Source of the DNA: Polyangiales bacterium
GTDB lineage: Bacteria; Myxococcota_A; Polyangia; Polyangiales; Sandaracinaceae
Reading direction: 5' to 3'
NCBI GenBank assembly: GCA_038252025.1
Contig: JBBSAT010000021.1
Span: forward strand, 6,716-46,715
Length of the DNA: 40,000 nt
Shown: one piece after another, positions 30,698 through 33,623 of the stretch
Numbering within the stretch: position 1 is the stretch's first letter
Layout of the letters: the number at the start of each line of letters is the position of its first letter
Program-made: the position numbers and the translations under genes
Notes under the pieces: model-generated
The model's database searches: none
What the model saw: the letters and a program-made list of their open reading frames with translations, nothing else
Told to the model about the DNA's origin: nothing

Positions 30698-31033
30698 ATG
30701 GTGACTCGACGCGAGCTTCCGGCGGGCCTCTATGACGCGGCGATCACGGCCGAGCTCGACGGTGCGCTCTCGTCTCTCGCGGAGGAGCTGCGCGAGATCG
30801 AGGCGCTCGATCCCACCGACAGCCCGCGCGCGCTCGCGCGTCTGGTGCACACGCGTCTGTTGCATGCGCTCTCGTCGTTCCCGACGTCGCCTCGCGGCGG
30901 GCAGCCGAGCGATGCGCTCGCGCGTCAGGTGTCGTTGACGAACGAGGTGCTGACGTTGCTCGAGGGCGTGGCGGGCTCGGGCGCATCGCCACACCGCGGC
31001 GGGCTAGCTAGGCATCTCGTGAATCCATCGTGA
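30698..31033 (+). pseudogene. orphan N-terminal fragment resembling the leader region of PLD-nuclease/DEAD-box helicase fusion proteins
   Basis: GGGGGA precedes the ATG at 30698. MVTRRELPAGLYDAAITAELDGAL...DALARQVSLTNEVLTLLEG matches my recollection of that family's N-terminus. The ORF stops after 111 aa, where base composition changes, and overlaps the 3' end of the HNH gene. Confidence 0.35.
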
Positions 31034-31864
31034 CGCTTGGTCTGCGTGCGTCGAGCACTCAGTCACCAAGTTCCATACCACCCACGGCGCCGACGGCCGG
31101 GCCCGCCGGACCCAAAGAACGGAATCGCTAGCCCCGACGCCGCAGCCGACCATGCCGCAGCCACGAGCCTCCTCAAGAGCCCAGAGCGCAGCGCGGCGCT
31201 CAATCGAACTCCGCTTCTTCGGACGAAGATGATTTCCGACCATTACCAGAGCGTCCTCCTGCATGCCCATGCGGTCGCTCTTCAAGATGTTGCATGGCTT
31301 GCACAGGACACGCACGTTCCCAAGATTGCCTCCGATGTAGTAGGGAAGTGTGTGATCCAGATCCGCCTCAAGAACGGGCTCGACGCCCTCCGCAAATCGC
31401 TGCGAGGCCTTGGCGACGCTTGACCGAACGGGCACCCCGCAGGTCGCGCAGCGGAATCCCTGACGGGATAGAATCGCGCTCAGGACTGGTTCCGGGATCG
31501 AGGCGATTCCTTCCTTCCGGGAGAGCGTGTTTGCGACGATCGCAGCGTGAGACTCTACGAGCTTATCCACAAGCAAGCTGACTTCTCGCTCTCCTCCGTT
31601 CTCCAGGTCCAGCGAACCGACACGCGCGAGGCGGGCGCGCACTAGTTCTGCACGCTCCAGGAAGTTGAGTGTCGTGGGCACATCACCGAGAAGCCACATC
31701 ATCAACCGCTCGGCGACCACGGCGGAAAGCGCGTCTCTTAGCGCGTTCGGATTCATTCCGAATGCCGCACATGTCTCAACCATCTCGTCCAACTGCACGG
31801 GACCCGTACGACCGGGTGACCTGCATTGAGCCGCGAGCTCGAGGAGACGGTTTACCAAGCTCAC
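31004..31864 (-). CDS. HNH endonuclease
   Basis: The motif is CATCG...DLDHTLPYYIGGNLGNVRVLCKPCNILKSD (CxxC...DH...N...CxxC). GTG 31864 lies 1 nt after the upstream TGA; the alternative ATG 31906 would overlap it by 41 nt. GC is lower than the surroundings. Confidence 0.8.
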   Translation of the reverse strand: MSLVNRLLELAAQCRSPGRTGPVQLDEMVETCAAFGMNPNALRDALSAVVAERLMMWLLGDVPTTLNFLERAELVRARLARVGSLDLENGGEREVSLLVDKLVESHAAIVANTLSRKEGIASIPEPVLSAILSRQGFRCATCGVPVRSSVAKASQRFAEGVEPVLEADLDHTLPYYIGGNLGNVRVLCKPCNILKSDRMGMQEDALVMVGNHLRPKKRSSIERRAALWALEEARGCGMVGCGVGASDSVLWVRRARPSAPWVVWNLVTECSTHADQASRWIHEMPS

Positions 31865-31865
31865 G

Positions 31866-33623
31866 TCAGTTCTTCCAGAACTTGTGCTTCGCTCGGATAT
31901 CGGCAAAGTCGATACCCTTTTCCATTAGCTGGAGCATCTGATTGCGAAGGTCATCACGCAGGGAAGGCGACCCGTCGAAGCCGGTGTACGTTATCTCGGT
32001 GAAGAAATCTGGCGGAATCTGCTGAACATACCCGGCTATCGCCTCTTCGAAGTCGGCAGGCGAGATCTTGAAATCGCTCATGCTGGTCTTCTTCTTTCTC
32101 TTCCGCTCCTTCGTCACGTCCGTCGACCACGCAGTCAGTACAGCCTCCTGAAGAATCCCGAGTACAGTGACTCGCATCAGCTTGAGACGCTCTTTATCCA
32201 CGGCCCGGGCGTGTCGGGACTTGCTCGGCCAGTCTGCCTGGGTTGCTGGCCACAGCCTCGGCTGGAAGTGAGTTGCCACTGCTCTCCAGAAAGCAGCAAA
32301 ATACACGAACCATTTCTGCCGACTTTGCCAGTCGTTGACCCTATCTTTGGCGTTGGTTCCCGCGCAACTTGCGGCAAACATTTCCTTCATAGAAAGCGGA
32401 TTGCGGTCCTTCATCTTCAACTGTGCGAAGCGTCCAGAATTTCCACTTTGGTCACGCGCGCCGTACCAAAGACGGACCACCTTCTTCTGCATCGCTGGGG
32501 CCTCGAGAAAGCCTTTCTCGCCTGGTGTGCTGAACTCCAGCATACCGCGAAATGGGCTGTCTCCTTCCTGCACGAGCATTACCGCCTGAATAAGGCTCAC
32601 CTTGATCTTCGCGCGGTAGAGGCGTTCCTCGATAGAACGCAGTTGCTCGGGGTCGAGACTCTCGCCGACGATCGAAATCAGCAGGCCTTCGCCGACCTTC
32701 TTAGCACTGCCGTTGTTGACGATGAACTGAAATGCGAGCTCAGCCCATCCTGCCCACGGAACGAATGAGATTAGAAAGGGGACCTTGGCATGCTGCGCCG
32801 TACCCTTGACCCGATGCTGTCCGTCGATAATGAGGCCGGGTTTTCGGTCGTCCTTCAGGAGATCCCGCAGAACCTCTTTTTGGCGCACCGACCAGCCTCG
32901 ATAGCTGCCACTCGTACAGATCTTCGTCAGTTCGTCCGGCCGAAGGTGGTCAAAGAACAGCTTGATTCGGGTGTTCTCGATCTTTTCGGGGTCCACCTTG
33001 ACGATAGCGTCTGTAGGGGTGGATGAAGCGGCAGCGTCAACTTTCGAGGGCGCCGCGTCGTCGTCGTCGTCGTCGTCGTCGGTGTCGGTGTCGGCGTCCT
33101 CATCATCACCGTCGTCGTCCTCGTCCTCAACTTCGTGTGCTTCGTTATCAGGCACGACGAGTGCCTCGTCTTCTGAGTTATCATCCTCAAGTGTAGGATA
33201 GATCCCCTTGACGGCGTTGAAGAGGTCTTTGATCTCGTCATCCAGTTTGTCTGCGTAGTCAGACGACGGCCACGGCGCGAAATCGATCTCTACCCAGCAC
33301 TTCTGTGGGAGGTCGGTGATGGCGGCTTCGTCAAGCGGCGGCCCTCCTTTGCTGGTCAGCAGCCTGATGGTATGCGCTTGCTCCGGTTCGAATCCGAGGA
33401 TGATCGCGGTCGGGCTAGAGTTGGCTTTGCTCGAATCGGTAAAGAACGTTCGGACCTCGGCTACGTGCGCTTCGATCGCTGGGCGCTGGAAGGCGTTTGG
33501 GCGTCGGGACATCTTGGTCGGCACCTTGGCCCAACGGTCGATTTCCGCCGAAGTGGCCACAAACGCGAGTTGGACGGGCCCCTTTGTGACCTGTCGAAAC
33601 GCGAACGCGTCGTAGGAGAGCAT
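31866..33623 (-). CDS. DGQHR-domain (DndB/DpdB-like, ParB/Srx fold) protein with a large acidic insertion
   Basis: This 585-aa protein has an AGGAAG Shine-Dalgarno 8 nt upstream. The FQRP...HV.EV..F block and the LIIDGQHR motif are separated by about 220 aa, versus about 85 aa in the two paralogs downstream. GC is about 50% in a hand-counted sample. Confidence 0.85.
   Translation of the reverse strand: MLSYDAFAFRQVTKGPVQLAFVATSAEIDRWAKVPTKMSRRPNAFQRPAIEAHVAEVRTFFTDSSKANSSPTAIILGFEPEQAHTIRLLTSKGGPPLDEAAITDLPQKCWVEIDFAPWPSSDYADKLDDEIKDLFNAVKGIYPTLEDDNSEDEALVVPDNEAHEVEDEDDDGDDEDADTDTDDDDDDDDAAPSKVDAAASSTPTDAIVKVDPEKIENTRIKLFFDHLRPDELTKICTSGSYRGWSVRQKEVLRDLLKDDRKPGLIIDGQHRVKGTAQHAKVPFLISFVPWAGWAELAFQFIVNNGSAKKVGEGLLISIVGESLDPEQLRSIEERLYRAKIKVSLIQAVMLVQEGDSPFRGMLEFSTPGEKGFLEAPAMQKKVVRLWYGARDQSGNSGRFAQLKMKDRNPLSMKEMFAASCAGTNAKDRVNDWQSRQKWFVYFAAFWRAVATHFQPRLWPATQADWPSKSRHARAVDKERLKLMRVTVLGILQEAVLTAWSTDVTKERKRKKKTSMSDFKISPADFEEAIAGYVQQIPPDFFTEITYTGFDGSPSLRDDLRNQMLQLMEKGIDFADIRAKHKFWKN
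33057..33080 (-). repeat. (GAC)8 trinucleotide microsatellite
   Basis: Eight uninterrupted gtc units on the plus strand encode Asp8 within the acidic tract of the 585-aa DGQHR protein. Confidence 0.95.

Follow-up and report, generated by a model that had tools for sequence, protein, structure and literature searches.

A DGQHR–HNH gene pair beside the 7-deazaguanine modification operon of a Polyangiales bacterium: probably a compact nuclease arm of Dpd defence

We analysed a stretch of 40,000 nt from a Polyangiales bacterium (assembly GCA_038252025.1, contig JBBSAT010000021.1, positions 6,716 to 46,715; hereafter the window), with the focus on a two-gene module, here called DG3–HNH, which adjoins a 7-deazaguanine DNA modification (dpd) operon. 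A reading made from the sequence alone, without database searches, had described a DGQHR protein of 585 amino acids (aa) and an HNH endonuclease, separated by 1 nt and placed downstream of the dpdA operon on the same strand, after a hairpin and a spacer of 275 bp. Both open reading frames (ORFs) and their TGA/GTG junction could be confirmed, with the DG3 stop codon followed by one base and then by the HNH start, from which the HNH homologues also align, and coordinates and RNA fold agree with the described placement. The two genes and their internal features are the following.

31866-33623, minus strand: DG3, 585-aa DGQHR protein with ATG start and TGA stop at 31866-31868 (ORF reading)
32811-32825, minus strand: DGQHR motif of DG3, aa 267-271, invariant in 21/21 family members
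32859-33272, minus strand: acidic insert of DG3, aa ~118-255 (~140 aa), splitting the DGQHR domain (profile alignment, charge, AlphaFold2 (AF2) model)
31004-31864, minus strand: HNH partner, 286 aa, GTG start at 31862-31864 (ORF reading)
31280-31450, minus strand: HNH catalytic core, C139xxC...D170-H171...N180...C188xxC-N192, to K195 (sequence, alignment)

DG3 is matched weakly by the existing DpdB models (PADLOC 2.8e-11; NF041060 45.2 bits against a cutoff of 300, as a partial match over aa 255-382) and reaches 28.9 bits with TIGR03187 (DGQHR domain), below the curated cutoff of 58.85. No Pfam family matches the window protein, PF14072 (DndB) included, to which 4 of 21 family members show a weak match. 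Profile-profile comparison (hhalign) with 12 DpdBs, however, gave a probability of 98.7% and an E-value of 4e-16 over aa 6-494, from which we take DG3 to be a very divergent DpdB/DndB paralogue. It founds a distinct family, homologous to DpdB and lying below the DpdB, DGQHR and DndB thresholds; about 100 full-length homologues, 530-620 aa long, were found, none of which bears a name. The motifs shared with DpdB/DndB are kept, since Q46-R47, D267-R271 (DGQHR) and F300...N304 (FxxxN), as defined in PMC4619093, are invariant in 21 sequences. In contrast to DpdB/DndB, DG3 has an obligate HNH partner and carries the acidic insert, which is missing from DpdB in the profile alignment. The DpdBs of the islands furthermore read DGQQR, as seen in 12 of 12 aligned canonical copies, versus DGQHR in the DG3 family. 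The net charge of the insert is -31 in the window protein and ranges from -12 to -49 across all 21 members, with no conservation of its sequence. The AF2 model has an overall predicted local distance difference test score (pLDDT) of 82, with aa 147-209 below 50 and predicted to be disordered. A PDB sequence search with the full DG3 profile returned acidic low-complexity proteins only, and nothing relevant was returned for the insert-free profile. A viral contig scan found no DG3 relatives on viral contigs.

The 286-aa partner is predicted to be an HNH nuclease whose catalytic core is intact, preceded by an N-terminal helical domain and followed by a C-terminal CCCH site formed by C236, C241, C270 and H273. 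Across 30 HNH sequences C139, C142, H171, C188, C191, N192, C236, C241 and C270 are invariant, and H273 is present in at least 90%. The Pfam family HNH_5 matches 24 of 30 family members, at best with 7.7e-10, the window protein itself scoring 18.5 bits, below the cutoff of 27.5; its PHROG HNH match is at 6e-7. While the AF2 model is of high confidence (pLDDT 94.6), the top Foldseek matches, the Cas9 HNH domain, McrA and Gme HNH, are not significant (E 0.2-0.5), and a PDB sequence search with the HNH profile gave no match. The family is small, comprising 209 relatives among 1.8 billion representative proteins, nearly all of 250-300 aa. Both protein identities assigned by the sequence-only reading, a DGQHR-type ParB/Srx-family protein and an HNH nuclease, thus held.

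Upstream of the pair, the genes run in the order queE-queD-folE2-dpdC-dpdB-dpdA-dpdB, all on the minus strand.

33624-33898, minus strand: spacer of 275 bp between dpdB2 (stop 33899-33901) and the DG3 start
33899-35011, minus strand: DpdB2 (PADLOC DpdB 5e-138; NCBIfam NF041060 448.6 bits, cutoff 300)
35017-36297, minus strand: DpdA, DNA-guanine transglycosylase (PADLOC DpdA 2.8e-168)
36294-37436, minus strand: DpdB1 (PADLOC DpdB 1.3e-130; NCBIfam 393 bits, cutoff 300)
37430-38350, minus strand: DpdC (PADLOC DpdC 1.2e-65)
38347-39186, minus strand: folE2, preQ0 precursor gene (Pfam GCHY-1 2.7e-92)
39141-39575, minus strand: queD, preQ0 precursor gene (Pfam PTPS 9e-37)
39530-40000, minus strand: queE, preQ0 precursor gene, cut by the window end (NCBIfam QueE 4.8e-58)

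Just 3' of the dpdB2 stop, the RNA fold shows a GC-rich hairpin without a U-tract. The terminator and promoter scan called neither an intrinsic terminator nor a sigma-70-like promoter in the spacer, whose folding energy is no better than that of shuffled sequences (z = 0.16). A purine-rich stretch, AAAGGAAACAGGAAG, lies in the spacer and ends 6 nt ahead of the DG3 ATG. Since the genes below 31004, encoding a secreted fn3 protein, a hybrid histidine kinase and a Ser/Thr kinase, are ordinary host genes, the pair constitutes the terminal module of the island on one side. Neither tRNA genes nor Rfam families were found at the island border, and therefore no att-like boundary was found. DpdD-K restriction genes are absent within window positions 1-40000, and the pair is probably the only restriction arm in the window. 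Two DpdB paralogues flank DpdA here (33899-35011 and 36294-37436), as in most related islands.

The pair differs in composition from its surroundings. Hand counts on 60-nt samples had suggested about 50, 72 and 73% GC, and exact counting yielded 51.7% (31981-32040), 71.7% (35401-35460) and 73.3% (9001-9060). By region, GC amounts to 58.5% in the pair, 65.4% in the dpd operon (33899-40000) and 70.2% in the host part (1-31003). The compositional break is real at the codon level: GC at third codon positions (GC3) is 0.68 and 0.71 in the pair, 0.79-0.89 in dpdB1/dpdA/dpdB2 (0.86-0.89 for DpdA/DpdB2) and about 0.85-0.9 in host genes. Low GC is a trait of the whole family and not peculiar to the window locus: among 27 loci holding both genes, the GC content of DG3 falls below that of DpdA in 25, by a mean of 5 points, or 7 at GC3.

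Related loci were collected by DG3-alignment-seeded scans of genome and metagenome contigs, by exact look-ups and by a plasmid search, with all ORFs labelled by hidden Markov models. Among the 48 labelled loci with a DG3 relative at E < 1e-20, 41 have an HNH gene directly beside DG3 in the same orientation, and five of the seven exceptions have < 500 bp of contig remaining. The gap between the two genes is about -14 to +16 nt in relatives; in distant short forms the HNH gene precedes DG3. Of 32 loci with at least 8 kb of flank, 21 carry DpdC-DpdB-DpdA-DpdB and queC/D/E/folE2 no more than 10 kb away, and several of the remaining 11 adjoin DpdD/K/J or preQ0 genes. The sequence-only reading had allowed for a pair that occurs mostly without dpdA or preQ0 neighbours; the opposite was found, since each of the 15 close family members whose flank could be used adjoins dpd or preQ0 genes. 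Immediate adjacency of the pair to dpdB2 or que genes is usual, while the arrangement varies between convergent, co-directional, HNH first or que genes lying between, and this variation in gene order and orientation argues for selection on proximity rather than for one common operon. DpdA is rare, being carried by 17 out of 72,556 plasmid records, and chance adjacency can therefore be considered negligible. The record titles of pair loci span eight phyla (Actinomycetota, Cyanobacteriota, Gemmatimonadota, Acidobacteriota, Myxococcota, Pseudomonadota, Bacillota and Planctomycetota), so that the pair is no one-off appendage of this operon but a recurrent cassette in at least eight phyla. Its culturable carriers include Mycolicibacterium fortuitum (CP060409), Terrabacter aerolatus NBRC 106305, Occallatibacter savannae AB23 and Nannocystis exedens DSM 71. 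In a DpdA-seeded sample, dpd islands without the pair were common (Enterobacter, Methylobacterium, Caulobacter, Skermanella, Sinorhizobium), the Enterobacter island carrying the canonical dpdD-K set and the Sinorhizobium island no recognisable restriction arm. A close-family pair without dpd genes was not seen among the collected loci. Such an asymmetry, with dpd occurring without the pair and the close-family pair not seen without dpd, is the pattern expected of a modification-dependent effector.

The pair also shows signs of a history of its own. In Mantel tests on pairwise identities over 20 loci, DG3 co-varies with HNH (r = 0.62, p = 5e-4) and DpdA with DpdB2 (r = 0.84), whereas DG3 co-varies neither with DpdA (r = 0.00, p = 0.45) nor with DpdB2 (r = 0.02). 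Co-variation of DG3 with HNH and not with DpdA indicates that the pair behaves as a shuffled cassette; together with the composition, the missing DG3–DpdA co-variation also fits the separate acquisition that the sequence-only reading had suggested. Relative to the window copies, DG3 shows 19-39% identity and DpdA 38-56%, so that the pair diverges faster. Such rapid divergence, together with the low GC and the shuffling of the cassette, is typical of effectors, and the data support a pair with its own history that yet repeatedly ends up beside dpd genes.

With respect to known systems, the window shares with Dpd of the Salmonella Montevideo type bona fide DpdA, DpdB, DpdC and preQ0 genes, and presumably the marking of self DNA with dPreQ0/dADG. 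It differs in having two DpdB paralogues around DpdA, no DpdD-K in the visible part of the island, and a DG3–HNH pair that is recognised by no Dpd model and elsewhere coexists with DpdD, DpdK and DpdJ only. The modification half belongs to Dpd, while the pair belongs to no named family. PADLOC, Pfam and NCBIfam contain no model naming it, and report weak DpdB and generic HNH similarity only, in line with the earlier expectation that no existing model would match. For Septu PtuB and PADLOC PDC-M01B, weak likeness confined to the HNH core occurs in some pair members (E 1e-5 to 1e-3), but the window HNH does not match and the partner proteins differ.

A parallel is provided by GmrSD, BrxU and SspE, which, as the pair is predicted to do, combine an HNH-type nuclease with an NTPase of the ParB/Srx fold that carries a DGQ(Q/H)R motif (PMC4619093, PMC9646914). 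GmrS and GmrD can be separate genes, and SspE is genetically and functionally tied to host DNA modification (PMC4619093, PMC9646914). In contrast to these systems, the nuclease of the pair is of the zinc-finger CxxC HNH kind (HNH_5/PF01844 type), and DG3 aligns with DpdB over nearly its full length and bears the acidic insert. DUF262 (PF03235) was found in 0 of 21 DG3 family members at E <= 1, with no PDB sequence match to BrxU or SspE, and DUF1524 (PF07510) gave no match in the HNH partners, which match HNH_5 or HNH. Membership of GmrSD was rejected on the lack of both domains, and the best reading is that the pair is analogous to GmrSD/SspE without being a member.

The pair is translationally coupled, co-inherited and co-varying, keeps the catalytic motifs in both proteins, and lies almost only beside dpdA/B/C and preQ0 genes. 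We propose, with somewhat more confidence than doubt, that DG3–HNH may constitute a two-protein NTP-dependent nuclease module which serves as the restriction or effector arm of the 7-deazaguanine (Dpd) modification system. DG3 would be a DpdB-derived ParB/Srx-fold NTPase that binds DNA and reads dPreQ0/dADG at the guanines targeted by DpdA, and its NTPase cycle would release or position HNH, such that unmarked foreign DNA is nicked or cut and marked host DNA is spared. Mark reading and NTPase gating are suggested by the homology to DpdB, the ATPase on which the action of DpdA depends (PMC10164549), and by the analogy with GmrSD/BrxU/SspE. In these systems a His-Me nuclease is under the control of a DGQQR ParB-fold NTPase, and SspE requires host phosphorothioate marks (PMC4619093, PMC9646914). 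The conserved disordered acidic insert of DG3 may be an autoinhibitory DNA mimic. The polarity could be either SspE-like, with the self mark activating, or that of a classical restriction enzyme, with the mark blocking. Taken as a whole, the pair is probably a compact and hitherto undescribed nuclease arm of Dpd defence.

Several observations weigh against this proposal. The restriction module is here a prediction drawn from comparative genomics, and the Foldseek likeness of DG3 to BrxU and ParB proteins is not significant (E about 1; BrxU 7p9k E 1.3). About 6.7 kb of the source contig beyond the window could carry further restriction genes. The lack of co-variation of DG3 with DpdA and DpdB2 would be unexpected if fine sequence specificity were common to DG3 and the modification enzymes. 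Some distant relatives of the pair sit outside dpd contexts, for example at the Pbe-like locus L020. Finally, in some islands DpdD/K/J lie next to the pair, whose role may therefore be accessory and not that of the restriction arm. Where dpdA is missing from the flank, this neighbourhood is the usual one (Terrabacter L002, Neobacillus L009, L021 and Agrobacterium vitis L058). A type IV-like PLD-helicase-DUF3427 gene occurs in the pair islands of M. fortuitum, Cyanobium and L010, and a PD-(D/E)xK nuclease with a DEAD helicase in those of a Bradyrhizobium plasmid and L025.

Compact islands without helicase, PLD or other nuclease do exist. In L066, where both borders are visible, only DG3, HNH, dpdB, dpdA, dpdB, dpdC, queC and three further genes are present, one with a PTPS (QueD) Pfam match and two without any match, which by their position are taken to be queE and the GTP cyclohydrolase gene; L067, L004, L005 and L041 are similar. 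The distinction drawn earlier between the pair and the helicase/PLD-type arms of described islands hence stands for the compact islands, as L066 has neither, and fails for Terrabacter, Neobacillus, Agrobacterium vitis and one metagenome-assembled genome (MAG), where DpdD, DpdK or DpdJ lies beside the pair. A stronger version of the proposal, that DG3–HNH could be the complete, self-sufficient effector of a minimal Dpd system of ~10 genes, in which a DpdB-derived reader gates HNH through its NTPase cycle and an acidic DNA-mimic loop, is one we hold only tentatively. If it were true, it would provide the first tractable two-protein answer to the question of how Dpd discriminates self from foreign DNA. 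For Dpd systems the way in which unmodified DNA is restricted, the nuclease among DpdD-K and the reader of the 7-deazaguanine mark have yet to be established in the field (PMC5699537, PMC10164549), and a widespread two-gene cassette that is the apparent sole nuclease candidate in compact islands offers a small system for mark-dependent discrimination that can be cloned and purified. The design in which a ParB-fold NTPase controls a His-Me nuclease, known from GmrSD, BrxU and SspE, would then, if the proposal is correct, extend to a third DNA-modification chemistry. DG3 and HNH furthermore represent two new protein families currently missed by defence-system finders.

Other explanations fit the strict and asymmetric linkage to dpd less consistently than a nuclease arm of Dpd. 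DG3–HNH could be a type IV-like enzyme cutting foreign-modified DNA (e.g. phage dG+, dPreQ1, or dPreQ0 outside host contexts), and would then be a second line of defence against phages which escape Dpd through modification of their own guanines. Its architecture parallels the type IV enzymes GmrS/GmrD, the cassette moves independently of DpdA, the PLD-helicase genes named above adjoin the pair in M. fortuitum, Cyanobium and L010, and phages with 7-deazaguanine DNA are common (PMC6884629). Such enzymes, however, work without cognate modification genes, whereas no member of the close family with usable flank was found away from dpd or preQ0 genes; the host DNA would itself bear dADG/dPreQ0, which would require fine discrimination, and neither DUF262 or DUF1524 matches nor copies on the viral contigs scanned were found. 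We consider this explanation unlikely.

We regard it as similarly doubtful that the pair is an accessory of the modification pathway, with DG3 as a DndB-like regulator or loader and HNH as a nickase for base exchange or for processing of intermediates, rather than a defence effector. Being a DpdB paralogue, DG3 could act like DndB, which regulates dnd; the modification module with two DpdBs has never been reconstituted, and the pair lies between modification and restriction genes in some loci. Salmonella DpdA/B/C, on the other hand, suffice in vitro (PMC10164549), many islands with two DpdBs lack the pair, and its fast divergence, low GC and shuffling are those of an effector. Least probable is an unrelated defence or selfish cassette without functional tie to 7-deazaguanine, for although defence genes cluster, the cassette is mobile and distant short-form pairs adjoin Pbe-like or other helicase genes (L020, L017, L043), the neighbour is specifically dpd/preQ0 over eight phyla and several gene orders and not a variety of defence systems.

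In the searchable literature we found no description of the pair, though Thiaville et al. 2016 (PNAS) may already mention it. The GATOR-GC paper reports that dpdD-K are missing from some islands, counts 801 additional dpdB copies and mentions HNH genes in the vicinity, and defines no module (PMC12235509). The association of HNH genes with dpd islands, which the sequence-only reading took to be new, had accordingly been touched on in passing for islands lacking dpdD-K. The PGAP annotation of Agrobacterium vitis L058 already names the two genes of the pair, as 'HNH endonuclease' and 'DGQHR domain-containing protein'.

Further observations concern the surroundings of the pair in other genomes. 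At L020 (Thermogutta MAG, 3235-9933), a short-form HNH-DGQHR pair adjoins PbeA and a PbeC/DndD-like ATPase, a phosphorothioate-type context from which it follows that related pairs may serve more than one DNA-modification chemistry. In one DG3 clade a conserved third gene (~350-376 aa, no Pfam match) directly follows HNH; it was located at L003:12366-13496, L004:12493-13584, L005:12456-13505, L006:4488-5690, L007:12344-13474, L036:4888-5985 and L038:2186-2527, in L036 and L038 directly after DG3 with no HNH between, and a search for it in the window was negative. At the P0020 locus (JGI 3300047160, genes at 4697-9183), DG3 is directly preceded by genes for a TrwC relaxase and a TraG/TrwB coupling protein, which places this island on a conjugative element.

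Canonical restriction genes found together with the pair are limited to DpdD, DpdK and DpdJ (L002:9290-16462, L009:2421-9758, L021:12144-19910, L058:27188-31245), and no DpdE-I homologues were detected within the flanks of these four loci. The protein beside the pair in M. fortuitum (L030:6748-9846) has a PLD-DEAD-helicase-DUF3427 architecture (PADLOC mREase_IV, 1090 bits), with homologues near the pair at L003:20252-21649 and L010:4284-7382 (Cyanobium, a Solirubrobacteraceae MAG). A 574-aa SAM-methyltransferase fused to an HNH_4 domain adjoins dpdC in a compact island (L065:11793-13517). In the plasmid islands of Methylobacterium, Caulobacter and Skermanella with two DpdBs (L061:25447-41269, L063:25100-40759, L060:27086-41269), another conserved arm replaces the pair, consisting of a helicase, three hypothetical proteins and a ~6.3-kb gene for an AAA-domain protein with a 2.3-kb partner. 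In the window itself, the region between the HNH stop and the next host gene (30003-31003) holds doubtful arginine-rich ORFs only; that gene (28572-30002, minus strand), ~1 kb below the island border, encodes the secreted protein, in which a linker of (PDTGP)n repeats is combined with an fn3 domain.

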